Origin: a virus | Taxonomy: Duplodnaviria > Heunggongvirae > Uroviricota > Caudoviricetes | IMG/VR virus record: IMGVR_UViG_2778261691_000003 | Location: 1 to 19,783 of that record | Length of the DNA stretch: 19,783 nt | Reading direction: 5' to 3' (one strand) | Shown here: piece after piece, positions 4,037-19,783 of the stretch | How positions within the stretch are numbered: the stretch's first letter is position 1 | Layout of the letters: each line of letters begins with the position of its first letter | Program-made: the position numbers and the translations under genes | Notes under the pieces: generated by a model | The model's database searches: none | What the model was told of the DNA's origin: nothing | Seen by the model: only the letters and a program-made list of their open reading frames with translations

Positions 4037-4111
4037 TGGCGGGACAGCGTGGGCTCGAACCACGATAAGAAGGTTAACAGCCTTCCGTAATGACCTTTAT
4101 ACGACTGACCC
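4037..4111 (-). tRNA. tRNA-like gene, possibly tRNA-Asn (anticodon GUU), atypical
   Basis: 75 nt: GGGTCAG TC GTA TAAAGGTCAT TAC G GAAGG CTGTTAA CCTTC TTAT CGTGG TTCGAGC CCACG CTGTCCC G CCA. Perfect T arm and anticodon stem, but one U-U mismatch in the acceptor stem and only a 3-bp D stem; lies 5 nt upstream of the tRNA-Thr. Confidence 0.45.
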
Positions 4112-4157
4112 AAATAAAAAAAGCCACCGTTGCAACTTAAGAGTCACTAACGGCAGC
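4112..4157 (-). terminator. terminator-like hairpin plus U-tract between Q and the tRNA pair
   Basis: Minus-strand GCUGCCGUU...AACGGUGGC (9 bp with two G-U, 17-nt loop) followed by UUUUUUUAUUU; the large loop lowers confidence. Confidence 0.3.
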
Positions 4158-4174
4158 TTACCTTCTAATTATGG

Positions 4175-4693: not shown

Positions 4694-5352
4694 GCGCCTT
4701 CTCCCTGTACCTGAATCAATGTGAGATTTCCGCAGAACACTGCGCCGGTATCGATATACATCTGGTTGGCAAATTTGAGTGGTTTCACTGCTGGCGTATG
4801 ACCAAAGATGAACGTGTCCGCGCCTTTAATTTCTTTCACGATCCCGTTTTGTGAGTTGCTGATTCGTTCGCGGTTCCAGATTACCTGCTGATGATCAACT
4901 GGCTTTCCAAATTCGTATTCGTCACAAGGATAATCGGCGTGGCAGATGACATATTTTTTACCTTTGCTCACCAGTTCGATGATTAACGGAAGTTCTTCTG
5001 CTTTATGGGCAAGAGCTTTAGCCAGAATTTCTTTGTCGTAATCGAGATTAAAGAACCAGCCACCGCCATTAAGCAGCCAGTGATTAACGTTTCCACGCTC
5101 TGATAAGCCATCAATCATCATTTGCTCATGGTTTCCACGTACAGCTCTGAACCAGGGGAATGTGATTAATTCCATACATTCGACGTTCTCTGTACCGCGA
5201 TCAACCAAATCGCCAACCGAGATAAGCAGGTCTTTTTTGGTGTCGAATCCTATCGTCTCCAGTTTTTTCATCAGGTTCGTGTAGCATCCGTGCAGATCGC
5301 CAACTACCCAAATATTTCGGTATTTGCTGCCATCAATTCTTTCGTAATAGCG
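4684..5352 (-). CDS. ninI: NinI Ser/Thr protein phosphatase
   Basis: From the internal Met: [29 protein letters not shown]...GDLVDRG...GNHE, a metallophosphatase signature near-identical to lambda NinI (221 aa). The ORF-track extension 5353-5430 is treated as non-coding. Confidence 0.9.
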
Positions 5353-5539
5353 CATCTCTTTCACTCCATCCGCGATGAACCATAAGAACGTCGTTGACGA
5401 TGGCGTGCATTTTCCCGTCTTTATCATCAACGTATTTTCTGACCGTACCGCGACTACATTTCAGTCTGCGTGCTACTTCTGTCTGGTTTCCGTATGCTTC
5501 AACGAGCATGTCTGGAATGGTTTTTACTGAGAACGTCAT
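5333..5539 (-). CDS. ninH: NinH
   Basis: 68 aa, [37 protein letters not shown]..., matching lambda NinH as recalled. Confidence 0.85.
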
Positions 5540-6147
5540 GCGGCCTCACTTCTGCTATTTCGCAGGTCTTTGAGTTTCTGTTGGTACTCTGCCTTGATCG
5601 CCTTGCACTCTTCGACAGTCCAGCGATGGCGGTTATGGTTTGATTCGATTTCGTCTACTGCTTCCTGCCCGATTCGGTTAATCAGTTCGACGCGATACGG
5701 AACGAGATTTCCGCTTTTATGCTGGTTGCACACCACGCATTGCTTGTGAATATTTCGTTCATCAAATCGGAGTTGAGGTGCCGCAGCAGTTGTCCGGTAA
5801 TGCCCGGCATCCCACTGAGCAGACGTGAGCGTTCCGCACGAGATACATGGTAAGTCGCGGTCTCTTTCTCTGATGAAGGCGTTTACGGCTTGTTGGGCTT
5901 GTTTAATCCAGTAACTGCGGGGCTTTAAGGCGAGTTTTCGAATCTTAAGTTTATCTTTCTGTTTCTGCTCCTCTCGTCGCCGTTTCTTCTCTGCTGCTTT
6001 TTCCGCTTTTTCGCGTTCTTTGCTTCGTCGTTCGAGTGCTATCTTTGTTCCACACTCTGGAGAGCACCACCACTGATTAGCGAATGCAGGGTGAAACCAT
6101 TCCCGACATTCTTCGTTTTTACATCGTCTTCGCGCTGGTTTAGCCAT
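5536..6147 (-). CDS. ninG: NinG / Rap recombination-associated structure-specific endonuclease
   Basis: 203 aa, [33 protein letters not shown]..., matching lambda NinG (Rap) in sequence and length. Confidence 0.9.
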
Positions 6148-6316
6148 CGTATTCTTCCTCGTGCATCGAGCTATTCGGATCGCTCATCAGTTCTGCGCAG
6201 CAGTGCTCACACACATGAACTTCCAGCACATGCAGCTTCTGACCGCAGTTAGCGCACGTTAAAGCCCGCTCGACGCTTTCTTTCTGGTATTGAATGGATT
6301 GGGATGGGCTAAGCAT
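6140..6316 (-). CDS. ninF: NinF
   Basis: 58 aa from the internal Met: [58 protein letters not shown], matching lambda NinF; its start overlaps the stop of the upstream gene (ATGCTTAG). Confidence 0.8.
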
Positions 6317-6710
6317 GGCTTTCACCATTAAAAAGTCGCTTGTAAGCATCAATGTCTCGTTTTGCTTCACCGAGCTTTCGTCTTAATTCCATGTTTTCTG
6401 ATTCAAGCTTTTCCATGTCTTGTTGGTATCGATCGCGGTGTTCTTTCCATGCTTTTCGATACGCCTTCATGTATGTCGTTTTGGCCTTTCTCTTTGCCTG
6501 ACGAACAGCGTGATGGTTTTCTACAAACCACTCAGGGTCGTTAAATGCTGCTCTGGCGCATGTAGACAAATAATTTGCTGCCTCCCTGTTTAGCCAACAA
6601 ATACTGATAAATGGCAACTTGATAAGCACCATTTTTCGTTGAGACTCTTTCTCGCCAAACATGTGCCATTTTTTGATGCTAAGGCCAAATCCAGGTTGAA
6701 TTAAAAGCAT
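6309..6710 (-). CDS. hypothetical protein in the ninE position (133 aa, C-terminal coiled-coil)
   Basis: The ORF track's 147 aa ORF opens on GTG; I prefer ATG 6708-6710, which has GAGGAA 8 nt upstream. Not similar to lambda NinE as I recall it. Confidence 0.5.
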   Translation of the reverse strand: MLLIQPGFGLSIKKWHMFGEKESQRKMVLIKLPFISICWLNREAANYLSTCARAAFNDPEWFVENHHAVRQAKRKAKTTYMKAYRKAWKEHRDRYQQDMEKLESENMELRRKLGEAKRDIDAYKRLFNGESHA

Positions 6711-6855
6711 TGTCATTTCCTCGCACGATGTCTTAGCCACCGGATATCCCACAGGTGAGCTGTGTAATTGAAGGTTTTTACGTCAGATTCTTTTGGGATT
6801 GGCTTGGATTTATTTCTGGAGCGTTTCGTTGGAAGGTATTTGCAGTTTTCTCAGA

Positions 6856-7029
6856 TTATGTCGGTGATACTTCGTCGCTGTCTCGCCACACGTCCTCCTT
6901 TTCCTGCGGTAGTGGTAACACCCCTGTTGGTGTTCTTTCACACCGGAGACACCATCGATTCCAGTAAGGTTGATTTGGTCGGAAGCGGTTATCTTCTTTG
7001 CATTCACCGCACCGATAACATCGCATCAT
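6856..7029 (-). CDS. ninD: NinD-like small zinc-ribbon protein (57 aa)
   Basis: [57 protein letters not shown]: two CxxC pairs, length equal to lambda NinD, start overlaps the ninB stop (ATGA). Confidence 0.55.
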
Positions 7030-7466
7030 GCTGCCCGATCTCCCCATCTCGCTTTCCACTCCAGAGCCAGTCGCGCTTCGTCTGACCACTTAACGCCACG
7101 CTCTGTACCGAATGCCTGTATAAGCTCTAATAGCTCCGCAAATTCGCCTACACGCATCCTGCTGGTTGACTGGCCTATTACCACAAAGCCATTCCCGGCA
7201 AGGTTAGGAACAACGTCCTGCTGCTTTAATGCTGCGGTAAACACACACTTCCAGCTTTCTGCATCCAGCCAGCGACCATGCCATTCAACCTGACGAGAGA
7301 CGTCACCTAAGCAGGCCCATAGCTTCCTGTTTTGGTCTAAGCTGCGGTTGCGTTCCTGAATGGTTACTACGATTGGTTTGGTTGGGTCTGGAAGGATTTG
7401 CTGTACTGCGTGAATAGCGTTTTGCTGATGTGCTGGAGATCGAATTTCAAAGGTTAGTTTTTTCAT
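7026..7466 (-). CDS. ninB: NinB recombination protein
   Basis: 146 aa, [56 protein letters not shown]..., matching lambda NinB as recalled. Confidence 0.9.
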
Positions 7467-7659
7467 GACTTCCCTCTCTAACAGATTTCAGGTTATTCCA
7501 CTCCGTTACCGCACTGCGATAATTCGCGGCCGCCACAGCGGCGTGGTTAGCGCAGTAGATTTGGCACACGTTCTCCATGTCGAATATTGTCGGTGATTTT
7601 CCGCATTTACATTTTTTGGCACGCGGTGCGTCTGAACACATTCCGTTAACGGTGTCCAT
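7447..7659 (-). CDS. hypothetical Cys-rich protein (70 aa) in the ren position
   Basis: ATG at 7657-7659 preceded by GAGGGGG; contains CKCGK...CQIYCANH; overlaps the ninB start by 20 nt. Confidence 0.5.
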   Translation of the reverse strand: MDTVNGMCSDAPRAKKCKCGKSPTIFDMENVCQIYCANHAAVAAANYRSAVTEWNNLKSVREGSHEKTNL

Positions 7660-7686
7660 CAGGATCCCCCTCGTTCTTAATCCAAT

Positions 7687-7713
7687 AAAAAAGGGCTACT
7701 GTGTAAATAGCCC
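7687..7713 (-). terminator. rho-independent terminator after the helicase gene (tR2-like position)
   Basis: Minus-strand stem GGGCUA / UAGCCC (6 bp, 9-nt loop) followed by UUUUUU then AUUGG. Confidence 0.5.
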
Positions 7714-7740
7714 CTGTTATTAGCTCAGTGATGTAGATGG

Positions 7741-9117
7741 TCATACGTCAGCCCCTTGTGCATATCGTCTGCCACGCGCAGCAGGTGCATTTGATGCTGT
7801 GCAAATCTGTCTGGCTTCATCCTGGTCACATGCAACAAAGTGTCCGTTACAGAACCGCTGGTAAACCGTACCAAGTGAGCCAAAACGGTTTTTCGTCACG
7901 ATGATTTCAGCAAATGGCGCGGCGCTACTGTTCTCGTCATATACCGCTTCCCGATAGAGCATGATGATTGAGTCTGCGTCCTGCTCAATGCTTCCTGAAT
8001 CACGCAAATCTGCGTTTGTCGGGCGTTTGTTTGGTCGCTTCTCAACATCGCGCGAAAGCTGACTTAGGGAGATAACAGGCGTTTTCAGGTCTTTCGCCAT
8101 CGCCTTCAGGCTTCCTGAGATGTGAGCAATTGCGAGGTCGTTGCGGTCTGCTTTCGGCTTCTCAATCAGGCCAAGATAATCCGCCATGATGAGTGACAGG
8201 TTTGGATTTTCCTGTTTGTGCCGCTCTGCGATTGAGCGAATTTCTTCTACCGATAACCGCGAGGCATCGACTACCCATACATCCAAATCTGCAAGCTGAC
8301 TCATGCCGTTAGCAACACGCGCCCAGCCTTCGTCATCCATCGATGCAGGATTTCGCAGTACGCTAACCGACATCCTCCCGGCGTTGGCAATGCTTCGCTC
8401 TGCAATCTGCAATGCGCTCATTTCCATTGAGAAAATCAATACCCCGCGCCGGACGTCAGAACCAGGAATAACGCGGCTTGCAACGCCTTCGGCAATCTTC
8501 AGCGCCAGCTCGGTTTTCCCCATACCAGGACGAGCAGCGATTATCACCAGGTCTTCCGCGTTCATCCCTCCGGTGATGGCATCAAGTTCTTCGATTCCGG
8601 TCTTCAGGGTATCTGACTCTTCTCCGTTCCTCAGACGCCTGTCAAGCGTGTCAGTGTAGTCGGTGATGATTTCCCCTAACCGTACCGGCTTAACCTCGTC
8701 ACGGGGCTTTCTGATGGCTGAAAGACGCTTTACAAGCTCATCCATCGCCTGACTCGATGCGTCGATGGTTCCGCTCTGAATTGGTTCACGCATTTCATCC
8801 ATGATTTCCAGCACCAGACGGCGGTGATAGTTATCCGCGACCATTCCGGCATATCCCTTCAGGTTTGCGGCACTCGGGCAGTTTTTGCTGGTCATCAGGA
8901 TTGACGTGAAATGCTCCTCTCCGCACGCCTCGGCAACCATCAGCGCATCGATTAGGTTTCTGTTTCTCGCCTGCTTGCGGATAACCTCGAAGGCTTTCCG
9001 GTAGAGCGGAATTGAAAACGCTTCCGGCTCCAGCGTTGCCAGAACGTCGCTGGCGGTTGGAGTTAATCCACCAATCAGCAGGCCACCGATAACGCTCGCT
9101 TCGATATCCTGTCTCAT
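7741..9117 (-). CDS. DnaB-family replicative DNA helicase (phage-encoded, in place of lambda P)
   Basis: 458 aa with Walker [17 protein letters not shown] and DnaB-like C-terminal region; ATG overlaps the O stop (ATGA). Confidence 0.9.
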
Positions 9118-9944
9118 GCAATCCCCCTGTCTGCAAACTTCCCTTCCCGTACTCCCGTTAACGAATCTTCCCTCAGCAGGTAATCAAAATCTGCCGTCCA
9201 GCCAGTGTCGTTGTCTCCGAAGTAAAACGGCTTGGCCTGATGCACAAACGCCCTGACATACGCTCTGAAACCGTCCACGTTTGGCGTTTTCAGTTGTGGG
9301 ATGATTTTCTTCAGGCGGCGTTTGCGTTTCTCGTTGACCGCAACAGCGTGTGGCAGTCTGTCACCGACTTCGGTGTTGTAGGCGTTCAGGAAGGATTCGT
9401 AGTCGATTCGTTCTGCCTTGCGCCGTTCAGGTTTAACCTGCCCATCGCCGCCCCCGTTAGGGGGTAAGGGGGTATTTGTATTTATTGTCTTTTGTATATT
9501 GTCTTTTGTGTTTGACTGATTCGGTAAATTGCTTTTTACCGATTTGGTGAAGCTTTGTTTTACCGAATTAGTAAATGTTTTACCGAATCCGTTAACTTTC
9601 GTTTTCCACTCGGAAATGTTTGTATTCATACCAACTTGACGCCCCACCTGAATGAGAACTCCCATTCTGATAAGCTCGTTTTTGGCGGTAGAGCATTTGG
9701 TTGGTGCCATGCCAGTGAGTTCAGCGAACTGTTCGTTTCCGATCCAATCTATTTTTTTGTTGTAACCGTATGTCTTGCGCCACACAGCCATAACAATCAG
9801 TAACTGATGTAGAGTAAGCCCAGAAAGCATGGCGGCTTCTAACAGTGTGTTTGCAGTCCGAGTGTAGCCATCTTCGAGTTCTGCCACGCGATGCTCCACG
9901 ACCTCCAGTTGAGGCCTGTAATCAGCTAACTTAACGACGCCCAT
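9114..9944 (-). CDS. O: replication initiator, O-like (lambda O-type N-terminal origin-binding domain, different C-terminal domain)
   Basis: 276 aa; [46 protein letters not shown] resembles the lambda O N-terminus; AGGAG lies upstream of ATG 9942-9944; iteron DNA lies in the linker-coding part of the gene. Confidence 0.85.
9470..9600. other. replication origin inside the O gene: AT-rich repeats plus four iteron-like TTACCGAAT-type motifs
   Basis: attgtcttttgt occurs twice (9483-9494, 9498-9509) in an AT-rich block; ATTCGGTAA at 9520-9528 and the inverse TTACCGAT/TTACCGAAT at 9537, 9560 and 9580, spaced about 20 bp apart. Confidence 0.6.
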
Positions 9945-10092
9945 GTTTCACTCCTGCTTTGGCTAGTCTGTAAACACCAACAAGGCGCTCTGCGAACGCC
10001 CTGTTATTTGCTGCGGCTACCACCAATCCCTCAGGTGAATCAGGGTGTCGAATCTCTTCTTTTTCCTGGTATTTCTTACGACGTTTTGCCAT
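9931..10092 (-). CDS. small basic ORF (53 aa) between cII and O
   Basis: ATG 10090-10092 preceded by CAGGAGTAATT, which resembles the lambda O ribosome-binding site as recalled; my translation [53 protein letters not shown]; its end overlaps the real O start by 14 nt. Below the 60-aa ORF-track cutoff. Confidence 0.35.
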   Translation of the reverse strand: MAKRRKKYQEKEEIRHPDSPEGLVVAAANNRAFAERLVGVYRLAKAGVKHGRR

Positions 10093-10100
10093 AATTACTC

Positions 10101-10178
10101 CTGTGGATTGATCCAGTAATGACCTCAGAACTCCATCTGGATTTGTTCAGAACGCTCGGTTGCCGCCGGGCGTTTTTT
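10101..10178 (+). ncRNA. oop: oop-like antisense RNA overlapping the cII 3' end (coordinates approximate)
   Basis: Plus-strand terminator GCUCGG-UUGCCG-CCGGGC + UUUUUU (10154-10178) sits in DNA that reads like the lambda cII 3' end / oop terminator as recalled; the 5' end is inferred from the lambda oop length, not seen. Confidence 0.5.
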
Positions 10179-10421
10179 ATTGGTGAGTCCATCAAGCGCA
10201 TACTTAAAAGCCCTGCTAATCGGACTGATGTCTGATGCCATTCCGAAAGCACACAAGACCGAAGCAATAAATCTCCAGTCCGTTCTGCTTATCTTCGATT
10301 CATGACAGCCAATCATCTTTGCCAGACCGCGCTGGGTAAGCGTTGACAGGTTGATGAGTAAATCTGTTTCTGCGCGATCAATTTCTCGCTGTGTTGGCTT
10401 GCTGTAACTTGCTTGTGTCAT
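10125..10421 (-). CDS. cII: CII transcriptional activator (chimeric: non-lambda N-terminal part, lambda-type C-terminus)
   Basis: 98 aa; the C-terminus TNKKRPAATERSEQIQMEF is the lambda CII C-terminus, while the first ~78 residues differ from lambda. Confidence 0.8.
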   Translation of the reverse strand: MTQASYSKPTQREIDRAETDLLINLSTLTQRGLAKMIGCHESKISRTDWRFIASVLCAFGMASDISPISRAFKYALDGLTNKKRPAATERSEQIQMEF

Positions 10422-10505
10422 TTGTTAATTTTCCAATAGTGAATAGTTAGTTGAAAGGTATGCGTGGAAACGCATATGGCCTTAGTTGGTCAGATATCTT
10501 GGGGC

Positions 10506-10551
10506 TCGCTTTGTCAGCGACGTAGGACGAATGTCCATTGTGAAAAGAGCG
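10506..10551 (-). promoter_or_regulatory. nutR-like site (boxA CGCTCTTTT, boxB hairpin with UGACAAA loop)
   Basis: Minus strand reads CGCTCTTTTCACAATGGACATTCGTCCTACG-TCGCTGACAAAGCGA between cro and cII; the boxB loop matches the P22/21-type boxB recalled from memory, not lambda boxB. Confidence 0.55.
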
Positions 10552-10558
10552 GTGTTAC

Positions 10559-10768
<210 letters not shown>

Positions 10769-10783
10769 TTAGTACATGCAACC

Positions 10784-10853
10784 ATTATCACCGCTAGAGG
10801 TAAAATAGTCAACACGCACGGTGTTAGATATTTATCCCTTGCGGTGATAGATT
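10784..10853. promoter_or_regulatory. right operator region: OR1-OR2-OR3 with divergent PR (towards cro) and PRM (towards cI)
   Basis: OR1 10786-10802 (TATCACCGCTAGAGGTA), OR2 10810-10826 (CAACACGCACGGTGTTA), OR3 10832-10848 (TATCCCTTGCGGTGATA). PR -35 TTGACT and -10 GATAAT on the minus strand; PRM -35 TAGATA and -10 TAGATT on the plus strand. Confidence 0.85.
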
Positions 10854-10856
10854 TAA

Positions 10857-11573
<717 letters not shown>

Positions 11574-11760
11574 AGGCGAAGCAGCAATTGGTTTGATTTG
11601 GTATTGCTATTTTTTCTCTAAAGTTGTTGAGCATTTTTCCGGTAGATAAAAATAGACGCAAATTTACATGATTTTTTGTGCTGTATTGCTTGCTGAAAGC
11701 TAGGTTTTGCGTAAACTTCAATTACTCAAATTAGAGTAAACAACATATAGGACACCCCAC

Positions 11761-11982
11761 ATGAAAAAATCTGCAAAGCACTTTTTCAGCGCTATGGGCT
11801 CTATCCTTGACCTTTGCCCAGCAGGTAGCTACAGCGAGTATCATTCAAATGCTACAGACATCGACCTTATCAACTCAGATTGGGTTAAGGTAGGTAGTTA
11901 CGTTAGAGACGCTGTAACTGATAATGAGCAGAAAAAAATCCCAAAGAAAGCTTCAAACCGCCGCACCGAGAAATCTTGTTAA
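11761..11982 (+). CDS. hypothetical protein, ORF-A of the rex-slot cassette (likely N-terminal part of a frameshifted gene)
   Basis: 73 aa ORF with AGGA 8 nt upstream of the ATG; ends 58 nt after the start of the overlapping ORF-B; an A7 tract at 11932-11938 lies in the overlap. Confidence 0.45.
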   Translation: MKKSAKHFFSAMGSILDLCPAGSYSEYHSNATDIDLINSDWVKVGSYVRDAVTDNEQKKIPKKASNRRTEKSC

Positions 11983-12457
11983 CCAACCAACTCCGTTAGG
12001 GCGAGTTCAAGACGGTAAAACCGAACTGCTTATAAATGAGGTCGCAAAGAACCCTCAAGTTCTTGAGCGCCTCATGGACAGGCCAGATCTAGCTGGCATC
12101 ATGATGCAGGTGACTCACACTAGATCAGGGCCACTCCCAGACGCTGACGAATTAGCTAAGTACGAAAGAATATCTCCAGGATTCGCTCGCGAAATAATGG
12201 ACATGGCTAAGGCTGAGCAAAAACACAGACACGAGTATTACAAAGCAGGACAGAGGGGAGCAATTTGGCGAGATCGACTCGGACAGATCTTTGCGATGAC
12301 TTCTGTCTTTGTTTTCGCAGGAATTGCTTACAAGATGATTCAGCACGAGGCTTATGGCTGGGCTACCGGGCTTCTTGGTGCTGAGTTAGTTGCTTTAACT
12401 AGCGTGTTTATAATTGGAAGAAGAGACAAACCGAATCCAAAGCAAACTAAAAAATGA
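11924..12457 (+). CDS. membrane protein with two C-terminal TM helices (DUF2335-like motif), ORF-B of the rex-slot cassette
   Basis: 177 aa in the +1 frame relative to ORF-A, with no obvious RBS of its own; motif PLPDADELAKYERISPGFAREIMDMAKAEQKHRH followed by hydrophobic helices LGQIFAMTSVFVFAGIAY and GWATGLLGAELVALTSVFIIG. Confidence 0.55.
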   Translation: MSRKKSQRKLQTAAPRNLVNQPTPLGRVQDGKTELLINEVAKNPQVLERLMDRPDLAGIMMQVTHTRSGPLPDADELAKYERISPGFAREIMDMAKAEQKHRHEYYKAGQRGAIWRDRLGQIFAMTSVFVFAGIAYKMIQHEAYGWATGLLGAELVALTSVFIIGRRDKPNPKQTKK

Positions 12458-12460
12458 GAC

Positions 12461-12489
12461 AACCCGGCCTCAGCGCCGGGTTTTCTTTG
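12461..12489 (+). terminator. rho-independent terminator ending the cI / rex-slot transcription unit
   Basis: Stem AACCCGGC / GCCGGGTT (8 bp, 6-nt loop) followed by UUUUCUUUG. Confidence 0.7.
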
Positions 12490-12640
12490 CCGCACGTTCG
12501 CCCCAAAACACATAACCAATTGTATTTATTTGAAAATTAATAGATACAACTCACTAAACATCGCAATTCAGATCTCTCGATCACCTCCCAAGCCACACAC
12601 CCCTGCAAAAAAAATAAATCTATATAAAAAACATACAGAT

Positions 12641-12703
12641 AACCATCTGCGGTGATAAATTATCTCTGGCGGTGTTGACATAAATACCACTGGCGGTGAT
12701 ACT
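12641..12703 (+). promoter_or_regulatory. left operator region OL3-OL2-OL1 with pL promoter
   Basis: OL3 12641-12657 (AACCATCTGCGGTGATA), OL2 12661-12677 (TATCTCTGGCGGTGTTG), OL1 12685-12701 (TACCACTGGCGGTGATA); -35 TTGACA 12675-12680, -10 GATACT 12698-12703; these match lambda OL/pL, and the sequence diverges from lambda downstream. Confidence 0.85.
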
Positions 12704-12771
12704 AAACACATCAGCAGGACGCACTACTCACCAGGGCGGTGAATATACAACGATTCGAATATGAATCTACG

Positions 12772-12786
12772 GCGCTGACAAAGCGC
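12772..12786 (+). promoter_or_regulatory. nutL boxB-like hairpin (GCGC-UGACAAA-GCGC)
   Basis: GCGCTGACAAAGCGC lies ~70 nt downstream of pL; same loop as the nutR boxB here and as the P22-type boxB recalled from memory; no clear boxA found. Confidence 0.5.
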
Positions 12787-12951
12787 AATAACCAAAGTGA
12801 ACTTTGGGGTGTGGTGAAGGGTTCATGGACGGGAATATGTCGCACGTAAAGCGGCGAGGCCTGCGGGACTATTGCCGAATTGAAGTAGGCCGAAACAGGT
12901 CGAAATGGGTCTCCCACCTACCACACCACCAAAGTTCATCAGGAGGTCTAT

Positions 12952-13335
12952 ATGACACGCAGAACTCAGTTCAAAGGCAATTCACGTTCTCGTCGTCGTG
13001 AGCGTTTAAAGGCAAAGGCATTAGCTAACGGCGTACTGGCCCGCGAAGAAGCAATAAGTTCAGAAGTATTACACCGCCCTACTCTAAGCAGAGCGCAGAT
13101 TCAGGCTAAAGGTACTCACGAAACGCCTGAGCGCATAGAAGACGCTAAGCCAATTAAGTTCATGGCACAGGACGTGATCTGGCAACAGAAAGAATACAGA
13201 CGCAATCTGGAGAGAGCGGCCATTGTGTACGCGAATGAGTTTGGACATAAGCAACCAGAAACTGGTGTATGTCTTCCAAACGTAGCCATTTACTCGGCAG
13301 GATACCGGAAATCAAAACAACTGACAGCGAGGTAA
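12952..13335 (+). CDS. N: antiterminator N (P22 gp24 / phage 21 type)
   Basis: 127 aa; arginine-rich N-terminus TRRTQFKGNSRSRRRERLKAKALANG and C-terminus AIYSAGYRKSKQLTAR resemble P22 gene 24 as recalled; preceded by CAGGAGG. Confidence 0.8.
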   Translation: MTRRTQFKGNSRSRRRERLKAKALANGVLAREEAISSEVLHRPTLSRAQIQAKGTHETPERIEDAKPIKFMAQDVIWQQKEYRRNLERAAIVYANEFGHKQPETGVCLPNVAIYSAGYRKSKQLTAR

Positions 13336-13338
13336 GTG

Positions 13339-13563
13339 ATGAATCAGACATACATTCCATCATGCTTGAGAAATCTGCCAAAGCAGAAAGCAAAGCCACG
13401 CAAGCAAGCCATAAAGGACGCTAAGTCAGAGGTTATTGATCAAGCAATACAATTGCTCAGGGAGGAGTTAAGAAGTGGCAAGCTCGAAGGAATGATGATG
13501 CCCTATCAGCGCGGATATCTTTCGGCGATTAGTAAGCTGGAAGTATTGAAGAGTGAATTATGA
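13339..13563 (+). CDS. hypothetical basic, coiled-coil protein (74 aa)
   Basis: ATG 13339 with GAGG 6 nt upstream, immediately after the N stop; no recognisable family. Confidence 0.5.
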   Translation: MNQTYIPSCLRNLPKQKAKPRKQAIKDAKSEVIDQAIQLLREELRSGKLEGMMMPYQRGYLSAISKLEVLKSEL

Positions 13564-13625
13564 ACTATCTGGAATTTCCGGATGGTTCATTGTTTTGGCA
13601 GCAAACCACTTATTTTAGGTGATAT

Positions 13626-14075
13626 ATGGAAGAACAAGCAAACAAGATTCTCGTAGAACTATTGCAAAAAGCCAGTAATGGAATAGACGCGGCTGTTTCA
13701 TTTAGCCAGGCACAGATTCCTGATGTTATCCATCAGTTGCTGCTATGGAATATGGTTGACAGTCTGATTAAAACATTAATAGCCATTCTAACAATCCCAC
13801 TGGTTTTCTGGTTTATGAAGAAGCAGTGCCAAAGAGTTGAGATAGGTAAAATCGGTAATGAAGGATATTCATGGGAGAAGGGAAATCCCAAATACAGGCC
13901 GACAATGGTTTGGGATAGCAAAGGTGATATTAATCTTCTTATCATGCCATTGGTTGGAGTTTTGACTCTGTGGGGGATTTTTATTATTGGTGCAGTAACC
14001 AATATGACTTGGTTAAAAATTTGGCTGGCCCCAAAGCTTTACCTTATCGAATATGCAGCATCATTGGTTAAGTAA
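13626..14075 (+). CDS. two-TM membrane protein, candidate superinfection-exclusion protein (SieB-like)
   Basis: 149 aa; hydrophobic helices LIKTLIAILTIPLVFWF and INLLIMPLVGVLTLWGIFIIGAV; lies between N and cIII-like, where lambda and P22 carry sieB. Assignment is by topology and position only. Confidence 0.45.
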   Translation: MEEQANKILVELLQKASNGIDAAVSFSQAQIPDVIHQLLLWNMVDSLIKTLIAILTIPLVFWFMKKQCQRVEIGKIGNEGYSWEKGNPKYRPTMVWDSKGDINLLIMPLVGVLTLWGIFIIGAVTNMTWLKIWLAPKLYLIEYAASLVK

Positions 14076-14224
14076 TTTCAGGCCACATAGTCGGCCTTTA
14101 TTTTTGGCATAAACAACAGAATAAACACTGCACTGTGTATTCATTCCAACGAGTGAATACACGGAGCAATGTCGCTCGTAACTAAACAGGAGCCGACTTG
14201 TTCTGATTATTGGAAATCTTCTTT

Positions 14225-14248
14225 GCCCTCCAGTGTGAGGGCTTTTTT
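14225..14248 (+). terminator. rho-independent terminator
   Basis: Stem GCCCTC / GAGGGC (6-nt loop) followed by UUUUUU; a weaker hairpin plus U-run also lies at 14080-14106. Confidence 0.65.
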
Positions 14249-14314
14249 ATATGCATACCAATAACGCTTCACTCGAGGCGTTTTCGTTATGCAATCAAAT
14301 ATAAGGAGTTACCC

Positions 14315-14449
14315 ATGATGCACTTTCAGCTCGCGGGTAGCGGCGTCATGTCCGCTTTCTACCCGCACGAATCTGAATTATCACGCCGAGTTAAACAATT
14401 AATCAGAGCAGCAAAGAAACAACTGGAGGCGTTATGCGCAATGAAATAG
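14315..14449 (+). CDS. cIII: CIII-like small protein (FtsH inhibitor family), 44 aa
   Basis: AAGGAG 6 nt upstream of ATGATG; MMHFQLAGSGVMSAFYPHESELSRRVKQLIRAAKKQLEAL aligns with the lambda CIII pattern (AG..VAG.PSESLLERITRKLRDGWKRLIDIL) from memory. Confidence 0.55.
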   Translation: MMHFQLAGSGVMSAFYPHESELSRRVKQLIRAAKKQLEALCAMK

Positions 14450-14586
14450 CCATTAATCACCAGATGCTTCGTGCTGCACAGAACAAAGCAGTAATAGCCC
14501 GATTTATTGGTGATTCAAAAATGTGGCTTGAAGCAAATAAAGCGATGAAATCAGCTATCAACCTTCCGTGGTATCGCAGGAAATGA
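14434..14586 (+). CDS. Kil-like small protein (50 aa)
   Basis: GGAGG 5 nt upstream of ATG 14434; MRNEIAINHQMLRAAQNKAVIARFIGDSKMWLEANKAMKSAINLPWYRRK; the FIGD.KM core resembles lambda Kil as I recall it. Below the ORF-track cutoff. Confidence 0.4.
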   Translation: MRNEIAINHQMLRAAQNKAVIARFIGDSKMWLEANKAMKSAINLPWYRRK

Positions 14587-14690
14587 GTTTTACAGATAAC
14601 TGGTCAGACGAAGAATTCATTCGTCAGATGAAAGAAATGCTCAATCAGCACAAAGAACAGGAGAAAGATGATGATTCTGACTCTGAATGA
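14583..14690 (+). CDS. small acidic ORF (35 aa), translationally coupled
   Basis: Its ATG overlaps the Kil-like stop (ATGA); my translation MSFTDNWSDEEFIRQMKEMLNQHKEQEKDDDSDSE; overlaps the next gene by 23 nt; no RBS of its own. Confidence 0.25.
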   Translation: MSFTDNWSDEEFIRQMKEMLNQHKEQEKDDDSDSE

Positions 14691-14979
14691 TAAGCGTGAA
14701 ATATCGCAAATAATCGCAAGTTTTACTGATGAAGATTACGAACGAATCAACAGTGAAGTTGATCGCCTCTGCAAACGTTGCGACCCAATAAGCGAAATGC
14801 TTCGCTCATATAAACCAGATGAACACACTAAGGACGCTATCGACTGGCTGGAAGATGATGACTGTAACTATCAGGAAAAAGCCGCTGAATGGTTCTGGGA
14901 TGCAATAACCGAAAGAGTTAAGGCTGAATATGCCTTCGCAATATTCAAACGCAGACACATTTTTGGAGAAGCTGCATGA
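14668..14979 (+). CDS. hypothetical protein (103 aa) immediately upstream of recT
   Basis: AGGAG 5 nt upstream of ATG 14668; its stop overlaps the recT start (ATGA). Confidence 0.5.
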   Translation: MMILTLNDKREISQIIASFTDEDYERINSEVDRLCKRCDPISEMLRSYKPDEHTKDAIDWLEDDDCNYQEKAAEWFWDAITERVKAEYAFAIFKRRHIFGEAA

Positions 14980-15887
14980 GCAATATCGTTGAATTCGTTA
15001 AACAGCAGGAGCAGTTATTCTGCGGAGCATTGACTAAACAGACGGTGACATGGGCTAAGGAAAGCCAGTTTGCAATTCAGTATTTCCAGAAAAACGATTA
15101 CCTGGCTAAAACAGCACTGGCAAATCCAACCAGCGCACAGAACGCCATCATCAATGTTGCGGCGATCGGCATCACCTTAAACCCGGCCAGCAAACTGGCT
15201 TATCTGGTTCCGCGCGACGGCATGGTGTGCCTTGATATCAGTTATATGGGATTGCTCCATATTGCAATGGAGTCTGGTGTTATCTCATGGGGTCAGGCAA
15301 AACTTGTTCATGCTAACGATACCTATGAGTCAAACGGGCTTGATAAAGCACCAACCCATAAATACAACGCCTTCGGTGATCGTGGTGATATCGTTGGCGT
15401 TTACTGCACAGTTAAGACGCCAGCAGGTGATTATCTAACGGAAGAGATGAGTCTGGCTGAAATTGAGGCTGTAAGGAAAACAAGCAAGGCGGCCTTCAGC
15501 GATAAAGGACCATGGGTAAATCACTGGAATGAGATGGCGCGAAAGACGGTCGTAAAGCGTGCAAGCAAGTATTGGCCTAAGGCATCACGTCTTGATAGTG
15601 CTATTCACGTACTAAACGAAGAAGAAGGTGTGTGGACTGAACCAGTTATGCCGCACAAATCAGAGGAAGATATCCGCGAAGATGAACGGAAACGCCAGCA
15701 GGAAATAACGGATAAAGCACAACTTCTTTGTGATGAAATGGCTCAGGCAGAAAACATGGATGATTTGAAGCGATATTTTGCAGAAGCATATCGCCTGACA
15801 TCTGGAATGAAATTGCAGCAGAACGTACAAGCCATTTACGCAGAATGCAAAGCGAAACTGGAGGTTGCCAGTGAGCAAACTGTATGA
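14976..15887 (+). CDS. recT: RecT-family single-strand annealing recombinase
   Basis: 303 aa; GPWVNHWNEMARKTVVKRASKYWP matches the RecT motif recalled from Rac RecT (GPWVTHWEEMAKKTAIRRLFKYLP). Confidence 0.85.
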   Translation: MSNIVEFVKQQEQLFCGALTKQTVTWAKESQFAIQYFQKNDYLAKTALANPTSAQNAIINVAAIGITLNPASKLAYLVPRDGMVCLDISYMGLLHIAMESGVISWGQAKLVHANDTYESNGLDKAPTHKYNAFGDRGDIVGVYCTVKTPAGDYLTEEMSLAEIEAVRKTSKAAFSDKGPWVNHWNEMARKTVVKRASKYWPKASRLDSAIHVLNEEEGVWTEPVMPHKSEEDIREDERKRQQEITDKAQLLCDEMAQAENMDDLKRYFAEAYRLTSGMKLQQNVQAIYAECKAKLEVASEQTV

Positions 15888-16353
15888 AATTGCCAATGAA
15901 TACGCAAAGCTGATGGATTCAGATTTAGAACCAGAGATGATTGCTGACACAATAGAAGGCATGGAAGGAGAATTTACCGATAAAATAGAGCAACTTCTTG
16001 CCATTATTAAAAATGAATCTGGTTATGCTGAATGCCTCAAGGAAGAGGCAAAGTCACTAAATGAACGAGCCGCAGTAATTCAAAATAAGATTGACAACAT
16101 TATGGCGTATATAGCGTCATCGCTTGAAATGGTTGGCAAGAAAAAGATTCGAGCAGGTATTCACCAGGTAACAATCCGCAAACCGTCAGAAACTGTAGAA
16201 ATCATCGACTCAAGCGCCATTCCTCCTGAATACGTTGAGTTTGAAACGACAATTAAAGCCGACAAGTTGGCAATCAAACACCAACTAAAAGCAGGAATAA
16301 ATATCCCCGGCGCTCAACTCAAAGTTGGGAAACCTTCACTTCTTATCAAATAA
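15871..16353 (+). CDS. hypothetical protein, possibly Gp157-like (Sipho_Gp157 family)
   Basis: I call the GTG start at 15871 (GGAGG 6 nt upstream), not the ORF-track start at 15865; MSKLYEIANEYAKLMD...; overlaps the recT 3' end by 17 nt; family assignment is from memory. Confidence 0.4.
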   Translation: MSKLYEIANEYAKLMDSDLEPEMIADTIEGMEGEFTDKIEQLLAIIKNESGYAECLKEEAKSLNERAAVIQNKIDNIMAYIASSLEMVGKKKIRAGIHQVTIRKPSETVEIIDSSAIPPEYVEFETTIKADKLAIKHQLKAGINIPGAQLKVGKPSLLIK

Positions 16354-16364
16354 CGGTATCGCCT

Positions 16365-16679
16365 ATGAAAAAGACTCCATGGGAGAAATGGGAAGTCGAT
16401 TTCTTACGCGAAGTAGCGGCGACAATGCCAGTTGAAGTTATCGCTGAAAAACTGGAAAGGACTGAAAAAGCAGTAATGGCGAAAGCAACAAGGATTGGCG
16501 CTGACATTGTTAGCCGACTTCGTGGAAGACGATGGACAAGAGCCGAAGTATCACTTTTCGGTAAGTTCTCCGCAGAAGAAATAGCAATTGCAACCTGCCG
16601 CTCAATTTATTCAGTAAGAGCTATGCGATACAAGCTAAAAAAACTCGATGAAGAAAGAGCAGGCATACGAATAAATTAA
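16365..16679 (+). CDS. hypothetical protein with two tandem Myb/SANT-like repeats (possible DNA-binding)
   Basis: 104 aa; the W-x3-E-V-x2-L...IA..L.RT..AV..KA.R pattern occurs twice (residues ~6-45 and ~57-95). Confidence 0.45.
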   Translation: MKKTPWEKWEVDFLREVAATMPVEVIAEKLERTEKAVMAKATRIGADIVSRLRGRRWTRAEVSLFGKFSAEEIAIATCRSIYSVRAMRYKLKKLDEERAGIRIN

Positions 16680-16695
16680 CATGGAGTAATTAACA

Positions 16696-16977
16696 ATGAA
16701 GCTAAACATAGACCTAGGCAAATATGTTATTACCGGAACAAAACACGATCTGATTCTTAGCGAAAGAGGAATTCTCAAAGAAGGCGAGAATGCAGGGAAA
16801 GAAACACTAAGCCGTATCGGTTATTACAGCAAGTTTGAGCATCTGGTTAAAGAATTATGCAACCGTGAAATCCTGTTATCTCAGGCGCAGACACTACAGG
16901 ATATTCAGCAACATATCGAGACTTTAGGTGTGTCACTTAGCATGGCTATTGACCAGTTAGTGGAGAGTAAATCATGA
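16696..16977 (+). CDS. hypothetical protein (93 aa)
   Basis: ORF with ATG start; its stop overlaps the start of the next small ORF. Confidence 0.45.
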
Positions 16978-17138
16978 GAGGACTTGCATACAATCCCGGC
17001 ATTCTTCCGGCAGAAATGATTATTCGCCAACGCGTAAAGCCAATGCCATCGAGAGAGGAATTGCTTAAGAGAAATAGTTTCGGTTCTGTTAATGACAACA
17101 AATATCTGAATGCGATGTTGCGGAGTGGGAAGAAATGA
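16974..17138 (+). CDS. small ORF (54 aa), translationally coupled on both sides
   Basis: ATGA overlaps at both ends (16974-16977 and 17135-17138); my translation [54 protein letters not shown]. Below the ORF-track cutoff. Confidence 0.35.
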
Positions 17139-17605
17139 AACAAATGTCACTAATTGAGATGGATGGATTCCTGAAAGGTAAATGCATCCCCCGAGATTTA
17201 AAGGTTAACGAAACAAACGCTGAATATCTGGTGCGTAAGTTCGGTGAACTTGAATCAAAACTGGAAACGGCGTTGCGGGAGTGTCGTTCTGCTGGAATCA
17301 CGATTGATAACCTTGAGGCCAAGTGCGCGGCGCTGGCGGCAGAGAATGCGGGGCTGAATAAATTTATCGCACAGAGTTGCTACGTGTTTGATGGCGAGCA
17401 GGATGAAATATCTGATGCGTATATCTGCGCAACGGACGGAGGAATGCCACAAACCCCAGCCACCGATGCTTTCCTGGCTGAAGTGAGGGCACAGGGTGTG
17501 GAGATGTTCTCAGAAAAATTCGGAGGTGGCACTCCGCTATCCAATATGGTCAAAGAGGTTGCGGCTGATTTTGCGGCGAAGCTTCGCAAAGGAGGCAACC
17601 AGTGA
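17135..17605 (+). CDS. hypothetical protein (156 aa)
   Basis: ORF with ATG start; its end overlaps the next gene start. Confidence 0.5.
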
Positions 17606-18264
17606 GCAAGATTAACTATCAGGCACTACGTGATGCGGCAGAAAAGGCAACACAGGGTGAATGGGTCGCATTTATTTCGCCGGGCAAATACGGCACGTAC
17701 GCCGTACACACACCAGGTGATAATCATCACGGAGATATTGTCGACTGGCCAGGATTCGACGAACAGAAAAACGCAGAGAACAACGCTCGTTATATCGCAG
17801 CTTTCAACCCTGAAGTAGTGCAGGCGCTGCTGGATGAACGGGAAAGAAACCAGCAATACATCAAATCACGCGACCAGGAGAACGAGGAAATTGCGCTAAC
17901 GGTAGGGAAGCTGCGTGTTGAGCTGGAAGCCGCAGAGAAGCGCAACGCAAAATTACAAAGCGAGAATGCATACATCCGCAACCGGTTCAAAGAACTGGAC
18001 CTGTTAATCGGGAAAAACATTCTGGTCATGCAGGCTGCCATTATAGAATGGCAGGCAACTGGCGACGCTAAGAGCGGACTGGCATGGATTTATAACACAC
18101 TGTTTGGCCCAGGCGAATTGCCGGACGAATCTGAGAAAGATGCTCAGGCCTACTTTAATCGCAAATATGCACCGATTGACGAAAAGCTTATGGAGCTTCA
18201 CGAGTGGTTTTGGGAACAAAGTAAAGCCGAGCGCGCCGCTGGCATTCGCATCAAAGGAGAGTGA
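17602..18264 (+). CDS. hypothetical protein, possibly ead/Ea22-like (central coiled-coil)
   Basis: 220 aa; N-terminus [21 protein letters not shown] resembles the ead/Ea22-like N-terminal motif from memory; position matches the lambda ea22 region. Confidence 0.45.
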   Translation: MSKINYQALRDAAEKATQGEWVAFISPGKYGTYAVHTPGDNHHGDIVDWPGFDEQKNAENNARYIAAFNPEVVQALLDERERNQQYIKSRDQENEEIALTVGKLRVELEAAEKRNAKLQSENAYIRNRFKELDLLIGKNILVMQAAIIEWQATGDAKSGLAWIYNTLFGPGELPDESEKDAQAYFNRKYAPIDEKLMELHEWFWEQSKAERAAGIRIKGE

Positions 18265-18265
18265 T

Positions 18266-18775
18266 ATGAGCACTATCACTAAAGAACGTATCGAATTGTT
18301 CATTAAAAATCCGCTTGAAAACGGACTTACCCGTGGCGAACAAATGGAACTGGCACGGATTGCACTGGCATCGCTGGAAGCCGAACCTGTAAGCCAAACT
18401 TACAAGTTTCCAGTTAATACACCTTGCCAGGATGCGCCAGCCCATATCTGGCTGCAAACGGCTGGAGTATGGCCAGAAGATGGCGAGTTAAGCGAATTAA
18501 CGTGGTGCAGCCACAATCAGCACCATGATGACACGCTATTTGTTCGAGCTGACCTTGTGAATGGCAACTATCCGGTAACTCCGGATGGTTGGATAAGCTG
18601 TAGTGAGCGAATGCCCGCTCAAGATGATTGGATTTTAATTTATTCAAAGCACGGCGAGTATATGGCAGGACAGGTACAAGGGGAATACGTGGAGTTGAGC
18701 GACGGCACTTTATCGTGGTTAGGGAACGCCTTGTACTGGATGCCGCTACCAGAACCGCCGCAGGAGGTGAAGTGA
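18266..18775 (+). CDS. DUF551-domain phage protein
   Basis: Start placed at ATG 18266 (AAGGAG upstream) rather than the ORF-track start 18104; C-terminal DGWISCSERMPAQDDWILIY...YWMPLPEPP is typical of DUF551 as recalled. Confidence 0.6.
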   Translation: MSTITKERIELFIKNPLENGLTRGEQMELARIALASLEAEPVSQTYKFPVNTPCQDAPAHIWLQTAGVWPEDGELSELTWCSHNQHHDDTLFVRADLVNGNYPVTPDGWISCSERMPAQDDWILIYSKHGEYMAGQVQGEYVELSDGTLSWLGNALYWMPLPEPPQEVK

Positions 18776-19053
18776 TGGACTCCTTCGCGAAATATACGAT
18801 TATTGACTGGATAGCCTTCCTTCAGGTTTTGCTCATCTGGTTTTATATGGCTTACAGGAGTGGACAGTGGATTGTCAGTGTAGCCTGTAGCAAGGGATGG
18901 CGTTGGTGGAACCGAAAGAATAAAAAAGCGCTGGCCTTGGATTCGTTTTACGAAGCATTCAATCTTAACAGTCTTCAGCCTGGTTCTGTCATTGTAGTCA
19001 CCACTCAAAGCGGCATGACCATTCAGATTCATAAACCAAAAGAGGAAAAATGA
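18775..19053 (+). CDS. small membrane protein (92 aa)
   Basis: Start placed at ATG 18775 (GGAGG upstream, TGATG overlap with the previous stop); one hydrophobic helix IIDWIAFLQVLLIWFYMAY. Confidence 0.45.
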   Translation: MDSFAKYTIIDWIAFLQVLLIWFYMAYRSGQWIVSVACSKGWRWWNRKNKKALALDSFYEAFNLNSLQPGSVIVVTTQSGMTIQIHKPKEEK

Positions 19054-19139
19054 TGTGGCCTATATGTGTTAATTGCGGACGGATGTGCCTATCTGGATGG
19101 TGCCGAAAGTGCGACAAATGCACGAAGAAAAGACAATAA
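19050..19139 (+). CDS. Cys-rich micro-ORF (29 aa)
   Basis: GAGGAAAA upstream; ATG overlaps the previous stop; my translation MMWPICVNCGRMCLSGWCRKCDKCTKKRQ has 6 Cys in 29 residues. Confidence 0.3.
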   Translation: MMWPICVNCGRMCLSGWCRKCDKCTKKRQ

Positions 19140-19210
19140 CAATCCTCGCACTCGCGGGGATTTCTTTTATCTGAACTCGCTACGGCGGGTTTTGTTTTAT
19201 GGAGATGATT

Positions 19211-19510
19211 ATGGTCTGTTCAACATTCAACCCTCTAACGTTACAGAAATACCAGCCAGACCCTGAAGATTTATGCTCACTGTGTGGCGGAAATCATGGT
19301 AAAGCCGCCATGATTGAATGTAAGGACAAAATCCACATTTGCCTTAATTGCGTTGATGTCCTAGTTGATATCAAAAATGAGAGAGAAGATAAAAAGCGTA
19401 GCGAGACTGTTCGCGCCTTAGATTCATGGATGCGAGATGGGTATAGTGCTGCGCAAATTTATGACTTAGCAATATCAAAAGGCGAAATACCAGGAGTGCG
19501 CATCGAATAA
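19211..19510 (+). CDS. hypothetical zinc-finger-like protein (99 aa)
   Basis: GGAG 6 nt upstream of ATG 19211; CSLCGG...CLNC motifs. Confidence 0.45.
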   Translation: MVCSTFNPLTLQKYQPDPEDLCSLCGGNHGKAAMIECKDKIHICLNCVDVLVDIKNEREDKKRSETVRALDSWMRDGYSAAQIYDLAISKGEIPGVRIE

Positions 19511-19550
19511 GACGTAACCAATATTCGAATTGAAGAACTGAAAGAACACC

Positions 19551-19576
19551 AAGCCGCCTGATGGCGGTTTCTTTTT
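19551..19576 (+). terminator. rho-independent terminator
   Basis: Stem AAGCCGCC / GGCGGTTT (8 bp with one G-U, loop TGAT) followed by CUUUUU. Confidence 0.65.
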
Positions 19577-19591
19577 GCCTGGAGAATTAAG

Positions 19592-19783
19592 ATGACCGAT
19601 ACCAGCCTGATTCCTGAGAAAGAAGTGATGAACAAGCTCGGTGTTTCATCACGTCAGACAATCTGGAACTATACCAAACGGCACGGATTTCCGAAGCCAG
19701 TCAGAACCCACCCCAAATCATACCTTCGTGAAGCTGTTGAGGGGTGGATTCTTAACGGTGGCGTTAATCAGAAATGCTCCTGA
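19592..19783 (+). CDS. xis: excisionase / AlpA-family HTH protein
   Basis: 63 aa; EKEVMNKLGVSSRQTIWNYTKRHGFPKPV is an AlpA/Xis-type HTH; sits at the int-proximal end of the early-left operon; stop codon is the last triplet of the window. Confidence 0.65.
   Translation: MTDTSLIPEKEVMNKLGVSSRQTIWNYTKRHGFPKPVRTHPKSYLREAVEGWILNGGVNQKCS

Follow-up and report, generated by a model that had tools for sequence, protein, structure and literature searches.

How a RecT-type recombination region operates when no recognisable exonuclease accompanies it is the question raised by a locus on positions 1 to 19,783 of IMG/VR virus record IMGVR_UViG_2778261691_000003, a 19.8-kb stretch referred to here as the window, which represents the early region of a lambdoid temperate phage or prophage of E. 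coli. In this locus, a RecT single-strand annealing protein is encoded between a 103-amino-acid (103-aa) protein of a family termed fam103 and a Sipho_Gp157 protein. The interpretation advanced here, to which we assign a probability of roughly 0.6, is that the genes form a complete, functional and nuclease-free recombination (Rec) module of the type found in phage HK140, in which Gp157 would serve as an end-binding partner of RecT in the exonuclease slot and fam103 would be directed at the host. The three central genes are as follows.

14668 to 14979, plus strand: 103-aa open reading frame (ORF), fam103; phrog_3486 at 3.7e-59, no Pfam match.
14976 to 15887, plus strand: RecT single-strand annealing protein ('SAP-4' of Zheng et al.); PF03837 at 2.7e-32, phrog_148 at 1e-92.
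15871 to 16353, plus strand: Sipho_Gp157 protein, 160 aa; PF05565 at 1.6e-37, phrog_253 at 2.6e-53.

RecT belongs to the family of that name, matching PF03837 across residues 31–217 with 112 bits against a cut-off of 24, and bears at about residues 235–303 a C-terminal tail of the class described below as type G. The downstream protein, which the first-pass annotation had called possibly Gp157-like, is a member of the Sipho_Gp157 family, with the PF05565 profile covered along its entire length (1–162 of 162, 1.6e-37), and its close homologs are named 'siphovirus Gp157 family protein' at NCBI. RecT is translationally coupled on both sides. Upstream, the TGA stop of fam103 (14977–14979) and the ATG of RecT (14976–14978) overlap as ATGA, with a GGAGA Shine-Dalgarno sequence positioned 6 nucleotides (nt) before the ATG, in agreement with the coupling and coordinates reported earlier for this pair. 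Downstream, the Gp157 ORF and the end of RecT share 17 nt; the overlap had likewise been reported, together with a length of 161 aa for the downstream protein, and here the length is revised. The start is most likely the GTG at 15871, giving 160 aa, because a GGAGG lies 6 nt upstream of it and 160 aa is the length of all full-length homologs among the matches listed.

Scans of the ORFs of at least 50 aa on both strands of the window against Pfam and/or PHROGs return no match to the lambda-Exo/YqaJ, RecE/DUF3799 or other exonuclease families, either beside RecT or elsewhere, which bears out the earlier remark that no lambda-Exo- or RecE-type enzyme is recognisable in the window. Moreover, a YqaJ, lambda-Exo or RecE gene is absent within 3.5 kb on either side of RecT from all 81 viral loci of the close-locus set, and the full genome annotation of HK140 holds no Exo, RecE or YqaJ gene. 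The further suggestion that an exonuclease partner might sit among the unassigned ORFs or beyond the window thus finds no support in either the window scans or the HK140 annotation. The window spans the whole leftward (pL) operon from N (12952) to xis, and hence the entire recombination region. NinB (Orf) and NinG (Rap) are recombination accessories typical of the nin region and not resection nucleases, and the locus falls outside the two-component class of single-strand annealing protein plus 5'-3' exonuclease represented by lambda Red and RecET.

A RecT without an exonuclease is therefore real in this locus, but the arrangement is common and already described as the HK140 type. The 2.3 kb around RecT is 97–98% nucleotide-identical to Kapi1, HK140, mEpX1, Gally and Louie. 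The trio of fam103, RecT and Gp157 occurs in 264–302 of the 5,426 complete E. coli genomes surveyed (about 5%), where it is annotated as 'hypothetical protein | recombinase RecT | siphovirus Gp157 family protein', and it is complete in 76 of the 81 close viral loci; this recurrence indicates that the arrangement is not due to chance. The Rec modules of 325 lambdoid phages were classified by Zheng, Casjens, Davidson, Amundsen & Smith (2025, Genome Res; PMC12315714). There, HK140 is given a SAP-4 RecT-type annealing protein with a 'MuGam' partner, no phage nuclease and no SSB; a nuclease gene is absent from 84 of 246 lambdoid Rec modules, and the 'P22' functional class (anti-RecBCD present, nuclease absent, SAP present) comprises 46 phages. 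With about a third of lambdoid Rec modules lacking a nuclease, and with the HK140 pairing of RecT and 'MuGam' among them, the nuclease-less situation that the first-pass annotation had treated as unrecognised is not new. Separately, a headful-packaging requirement was considered as the cause of the module and rejected, as the HK140 module sits with an HK97/HK022-like virion gene set.

The role of Gp157 is approached through its position and its association with RecT. About 245 RecT loci were collected from viral contigs and reduced to 188 unique RecT sequences, whose neighbours were typed with purpose-built hidden Markov models (HMMs). Gp157 lies directly after RecT in every one of the 81 close loci, and among the 188 unique RecTs the following gene is either Gp157 or YqaJ and never both. 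Alignment divides the last ~70 residues of RecT into two unrelated types, G and X: type G tails accompany Gp157 in 64 cases and YqaJ in none, while type X tails accompany YqaJ in 97 cases and Gp157 in none, with 20 more scored as having neither downstream. In those of the latter loci that were inspected, the score arises apparently because a 206-aa Cys/His-rich ORF is inserted between RecT and YqaJ (L218 4415–5035, L222 4415–5035, L206 4425–5045); this insert resembles an HNH-type homing endonuclease by appearance and breaks the usual overlap of RecT and YqaJ. Annealing-core identity reaches 80% between G-type and X-type RecTs (L092 versus L197) and X-type cores diverge to 54% among themselves, showing that the tail type is independent of the annealing core.

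In addition, Gp157 is found together with authentic lambda Gam in Dewey (PF06064 at 1.5e-50) and with GamL in HK639, from which it follows that Gp157 is not a mere substitute for either, and a protein of the Gam slot (fam103, GamL or lambda Gam) accompanies it in 62 of 64 unique cases. A Gp157 that replaces the exonuclease as RecT partner, docked on a dedicated tail, would fit these sequence patterns better than a redundant RecBCD block. The C-terminal domain of lambda Beta reportedly binds Exo, an observation attributed to Caldwell et al. in 2019.

The strongest competing explanation holds that Gp157 is a RecBCD antagonist acting in end protection only, with no functional link to RecT, and that its exclusion of YqaJ and its association with the tail are by-products of linkage and common ancestry. 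It agrees with the 'Mu Gam-like end protection' label of phrog_253 in PHROGs and with the listing of Gp157 as the anti-RecBCD function of HK140 in PMC12315714, and it exploits the contiguity of the RecT tail and the downstream gene, by which a single crossover in the conserved core moves both. The same adjacency counts against a partnership, as linkage may explain part of the covariation, and so does the phylogenetic clustering of the 188-RecT sample. Nevertheless, end protection alone would imply systematic redundancy with the second Gam-slot protein present in 62 of 64 cases, a situation described as rare (3 phages) in PMC12315714, and it would have to accommodate a tail/partner pairing that holds without exception in 161 unique RecTs, despite free reshuffling of the upstream slot relative to those cores. 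We regard this explanation as possible but less probable, and treat Gp157 as a putative RecT partner.

Mu Gam binds double-stranded DNA (dsDNA) ends as a Ku-like dimer, and Ku-like binding of dsDNA ends is the likeliest mode of action for Gp157 as well, its membership of that family being putative. The Ku-like assignment rests on the PHROG label and on PMC12315714, which assigns Gp157 to a MuGam type by psiBLAST, HMMs and AlphaFold 3. An AlphaFold 2 (AF2) monomer model of Gp157 consists of a 68-residue helix and a small C-terminal beta domain (predicted local distance difference test, pLDDT, 79; predicted template modelling score, pTM, 0.39), an architecture compatible with the leucine zipper and core of Mu Gam, and in a profile alignment the C-terminal domains of the two proteins are co-linear and have the motifs R-PS--V-I-D, K-AI and G...G in common. 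A sequence search of solved structures with Gp157 yields no relative below E = 0.01. Several results weigh against a relationship. Gp157 and Mu Gam fall into separate PHROGs (253 versus 491) and separate Pfam families; hhalign, run against a single Mu Gam sequence and then with 26-sequence profiles on both sides, is significant in neither form, with E = 0.05–0.09 and the real score reached by 15 of 200 column shuffles; and a Foldseek search of the PDB with the Gp157 model (pTM 0.39) finds nothing below E = 0.4, neither 2P2U nor Ku among the matches.

The upstream protein occupies the slot that holds Gam in other modules. The upstream border of the Rec module is kil, as in lambda and P22:

14434 to 14586, plus strand: kil, host septation inhibitor; PF06301 Lambda_Kil at 1.7e-20, phrog_2055 at 1.2e-35.

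The fam103 gene lies between kil and the annealing-protein gene, as does Gam in Dewey and GamL in HK639. Across the 188 unique loci the slot before RecT holds fam103 in 74, GamL in 57 and lambda Gam in 28, no two of them co-occurring, and each of the three combines both with Gp157 and with YqaJ. Defined as the phrog_3486 family, fam103 has relatives in 27 clusters by word-indexed search, nearly all from E. coli, and an exhaustive HMMER profile search extends this to 54 relatives, mostly of ~100 aa, with identity down to ~25%. The profile also matches four long proteins, with 5–13 repeated partial matches each (P0168, 3663 aa; P0190, 2283 aa; P0184, 908 aa; P0177, 538 aa), which could reflect either repeats of like composition or a domain that is truly repeated.

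A fam103 gene is invariably the leading gene of its recombination cassette; in 72 of 74 unique loci its stop codon and the following start overlap. What follows it varies. RecT with Gp157 is found in the window and, at 40% fam103 identity, in P0162; RecT with YqaJ in ENT47670, Midgardsormr38, P0165 and P0174, the RecTs of the last two being only 22% identical to that of the window; and a RecE-like PD-(D/E)XK nuclease in SEN22 and P0185. In SEN22 (L003 3086–4784) the 103-aa gene stands at 95% identity directly before the nuclease gene. Being indifferent to its phage partners and alternating with two established RecBCD inhibitors, fam103 may be regarded as a host-directed antagonist; a role as inhibitor or modulator of a host nuclease, RecBCD for example, is given a chance of roughly one in two.

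Physical and sequence features are consistent with such a role. The fam103 proteins equal Gam in size and are acidic to the same degree (median isoelectric point 4.64 versus 4.69; net charge -9.2 versus -9.3), and the AF2 model is all-helical (pLDDT 77). The best-conserved motif of the family is co-linear with the C-terminal part of Gam, HTKDAIDWLEDDDCNYQEKAAEWFW versus ASKNAISKAFDDDVEFQERAAEFIR. Specifically, fam103 residues 53–77 align with Gam residues 57–81 over 25 columns at 44% identity with a score of 21.6 and a probability of 14%; column shuffles score 11 ± 2 and reach the real value in 0 of 400 trials. Chi sites provide a further indication. ENT47670 and Midgardsormr38, in which fam103 is the sole candidate inhibitor, have 0/0 sites, against an expectation from base composition of ~1.6 per genome. 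SEN22 likewise appears with 0/0 sites and no anti-RecBCD protein in Table 1 of PMC12315714, and that paper ties the 0/0 pattern to anti-RecBCD phages. The window itself has no Chi site where 0.47 are expected, which is consistent with the pattern and not discriminating.

These indications are offset by a series of results. Column shuffling inflates significance for helical proteins such as those in the fam103–Gam match, and the Pfam Gam HMM (PF06064) matches none of the 36 fam103 members scanned against Pfam at E <= 10, giving scattered noise only. No match of fam103 to GamL is found, nor to Abc2 (hhalign probability below 1%). A confident AF2 model was obtained in only 1 of 5, and Foldseek searches of the PDB and BFVD with this moderate-confidence model return no Gam (2UUZ, 5MBV). 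The Chi argument draws on three genomes, and HK140 itself contains 4 Chi sites. Those sites (L336 2143, 13519, 15106, 16201) all lie on one strand among the late structural genes, at a distance from the Rec module, a placement that fits the mosaic-shuffling picture drawn in PMC12315714.

In the PDB, fam103 has no relative by sequence (below E = 0.01) or by fold, and its matches in BFVD are all uncharacterised; one of the two best structural matches there (template modelling score 0.50) is a 104-aa protein of Edno5 (A0A3G3BYC6), a phage also cited in PMC12315714 as lacking an anti-RecBCD function. BLASTP of fam103 against P22 Abc1 and Abc2 gives E = 0.9–3, and the protein shows no sequence similarity to the P22 families Abc2 (PF11043), Abc1 or Arf; Gp157 has no BLASTP match to Abc1 or Abc2 either. 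The first-pass proposal that the flanking proteins might be Gam- or Abc-like nuclease inhibitors or recombination partners is thus plausible and the best current reading, without the P22 Abc1/Abc2 similarity at BLASTP level for either flank; profile comparison gave the PF05565 match for Gp157, no nuclease match for either protein, and no match of fam103 to Pfam Gam, GamL or Abc2. Where fam103, Gam and GamL are all absent, other small ORFs overlap the RecT start, among them an acidic-looking ORF of 68 aa and one of 83 aa with a Gam-like N-terminus (L197 3298–3504, L206 3253–3504), with no PHROG match, and there may be additional unrecognised families in the Gam slot.

For fam103 the main rival is a phage-directed accessory comparable to P22 Arf or Abc1, with phage proteins or DNA as its target, such as a loader, a chaperone or a stoichiometry factor for the first protein of the cassette. 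The overlaps of stop and start in 72 of 74 loci would favour equimolar co-expression with the next gene, the C-terminus (E-A/V-A) is conserved, no significant match to known RecBCD inhibitor families is found, and the P22 Rec module contains small accessory proteins of unexplained mechanism according to PMC12315714. Coupling, however, fails to separate the two explanations, as lambda Gam likewise abuts RecT with a -1 overlap. A specific partner is argued against by the variation downstream, where two RecT subtypes 22% identical or a RecE-like nuclease may follow, and the strict exclusion with Gam and GamL in one slot also counts against an accessory. A phage-directed accessory is accordingly judged unlikely, and fam103 is carried forward as a candidate antagonist of a host nuclease.

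Combining these elements, the module could operate after injection of the phage DNA or during late replication. The fam103 protein would inhibit or re-programme RecBCD, its target being the host rather than a particular phage partner, while Gp157 dimers, built from a coiled coil and a beta domain in the manner of Mu Gam and Ku, would cap and protect double-strand ends. Gp157 would dock on the type G tail of RecT, as lambda Exo does on the C-terminal domain of Beta, and thereby recruit RecT; single strands would be supplied by a host nuclease or helicase or by replication, and RecT would anneal the exposed strands, leading to circularisation or concatemerisation of the phage DNA. One difficulty weighs against this scheme: a full RecBCD block, as in Dewey with its true Gam, leaves end resection unexplained. 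A bolder version, which we consider doubtful, envisages a three-part nuclease-free end-capture system in which fam103 would either represent a new class of RecBCD inhibitors or, in the manner of Abc2, re-programme RecBCD so that the host enzyme itself carries out the resection, and Gp157 would be a Ku-like RecT partner bound to a specific tail.

Two further explanations fare poorly. An exonuclease might be present in disguise, with Gp157 or another unassigned pL ORF acting as a cryptic nuclease; Gp157 does occupy the position of YqaJ with a like overlap of the RecT stop, and several pL ORFs are without assigned function. No ORF, however, matches a nuclease family in Pfam or PHROGs, the Gp157 model of one long helix and a small beta domain has no nuclease-like structural match, and PMC12315714 describes nuclease-less modules, those of P22 and HK620 among them, as functional in experiments, which makes a hidden nuclease very improbable. 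That the module is a decaying, non-functional remnant left by loss of an exonuclease is hardly credible at all, given the identical module type in plaque-forming Kapi1, HK140, mEpX1, Gally and Louie, its trio in ~5% of complete E. coli genomes, the intact reading frames and conserved overlaps throughout, and the persistence of the trio down to 40% fam103 identity (P0162).

The nuclease-free module includes further small genes on either side of the trio, one upstream and one downstream, the latter related to a P22 and a Mu gene.

14583 to 14690, plus strand: 35-aa acidic mini-ORF; phrog_17766 at 7.5e-16, phrog_2123 at 7e-12 (oddly labelled 'recombinase').
16365 to 16679, plus strand: 104-aa helix-turn-helix/Myb-like protein; phrog_323 at 2.8e-20.
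Reference genes of phrog_323: P22 abc1, L005 7971–8255; Mu gp9, L012 5482–5781.

The 35-aa ORF, which overlaps both the kil stop, as ATGA, and the fam103 start, recurs in 67 of 81 close loci; in distant fam103 loci a different ORF of 37–40 aa (phrog_2180) takes its place (L095 2888–3004, L006 345–458, L009 152–274). Its identification as P22 Arf was rejected, Arf being phrog_2445 and BLASTP comparisons being negative or trivial. In 66 of 81 close loci the gene after Gp157 is that of the 104-aa protein, which is probably an accessory member of the module. It belongs to phrog_323 ('D5-like regulator') together with P22 Abc1 (1.3e-23) and Mu gp9 (5.2e-29), and this common PHROG lends profile-level support to the label 'Abc1-like' given by the annotators of phage Gally; by BLASTP, comparison of the 104-aa ORF with P22 Abc1 and Abc2 is negative. 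An adjacency of Abc1-like and Gam-like genes recurs: in Mu, gp9 immediately precedes gam, and in the window the 104-aa ORF comes straight after Gp157.

The surrounding genes are arranged as in a lambdoid early region.

Minus strand: rightward operon with cro, cII, O, a DnaB-like helicase, NinB, NinG, Q, lysis genes, Rha and the small terminase subunit.
10860 to 11573, plus strand: cI.
12952 to 13335, plus strand: P22-type N, start of the pL operon.
Plus strand, pL order: N, cIII, kil, the RecT region, Ead/Ea22, DUF551 and DUF4752 genes, AlpA-type excisionase.
19592 to the window end, plus strand: xis, AlpA-type excisionase.

The immunity region (10559–13335) appears mosaic, with cI and cro lambda-like and N resembling P22 gp24; all of these assignments are by eye, Pfam supporting the N-peptide match only. 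The position of lambda rexA/rexB is occupied by a 73-aa ORF and a DUF2335 membrane protein (11761–12457).

What is new in this locus amounts to modest leads from sequence comparison: fam103 as a putative family of the Gam slot, and the apparent rule linking RecT tail and partner. As a candidate new family of host-nuclease antagonists present in ~5% of complete E. coli genomes, fam103 occurs in phages now scored as lacking anti-RecBCD function. If the assignment is correct, SEN22 and perhaps Edno5, ENT47670 and Midgardsormr38 would possess an anti-RecBCD protein after all, the 'MuGam' genes of SAP-4 modules would have been mis-filed as the anti-RecBCD function, and the rule connecting Chi sites with RecBCD inhibition would be refined, with consequences for defence systems that respond to RecBCD inhibition. 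A RecT tail that acts as a swappable, partner-specific adaptor for Gp157 or YqaJ would be useful in recombineering design, and efficient dsDNA recombineering with a RecT of the window lineage may depend on the cognate Gp157 and fam103 instead of a foreign exonuclease.

Among known systems, the lambda Red operon (gam-bet-exo) agrees with the window in its position after cIII and kil and in its succession of a small acidic protein, an annealing protein and a partner gene with overlapping junctions; in ENT47670 and Midgardsormr38, the order fam103-RecT-YqaJ is a positional copy of it. It differs in all three slots, as the first holds in the window fam103, which lies outside the Gam HMM, the annealing protein is of RecT and not Beta type, and the third gene is Gp157 and not a 5'-3' exonuclease. 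The P22 region (kil-arf-erf-abc1-abc2) is likewise nuclease-less with small accessory proteins, and Abc1 and the 104-aa ORF both fall into phrog_323, whereas its annealing protein is Erf and not RecT, Gp157 is absent, and fam103 is dissimilar to Abc2 and Arf. P22 modifies host RecBCD through Abc2 rather than encoding a nuclease.

Gp157 resembles Mu Gam in size (160 versus 174 aa) and, in its model, the Mu Gam and Ku type in a long N-terminal helix followed by a beta-rich C-terminal domain, and the Mu gam and Gp157 genes both adjoin a phrog_323 gene; Mu gam, however, is not paired with an annealing protein, whereas Gp157 follows RecT. In Firmicutes phages, the genes for Gam, Sipho_Gp157, DUF1351 and DUF2483 beside erf and sak4 are interchangeable and have been read as functionally analogous (Steczkiewicz et al. 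2021, PMC8093625). Small genes for Gp157 or Mu Gam homologs thus adjoin annealing-protein genes there too, but they stand upstream of Erf or Sak4 plus SSB, whereas in the window Gp157 comes after RecT, takes turns with the exonuclease and is accompanied by a separate gene in the Gam slot.

The closest relative is the HK140-type module itself, with ~98% nucleotide identity, a RecT-type annealing protein followed by Gp157/'MuGam', no nuclease and a place in the 'P22' class. In the main text of PMC12315714, the genes for the 103-aa, 35-aa and Abc1-like 104-aa proteins go unmentioned as members of this module and Gp157 is treated solely as its anti-RecBCD function; in the arrangement described here, Gp157 occupies the exonuclease slot and a separate protein takes the slot of Gam.

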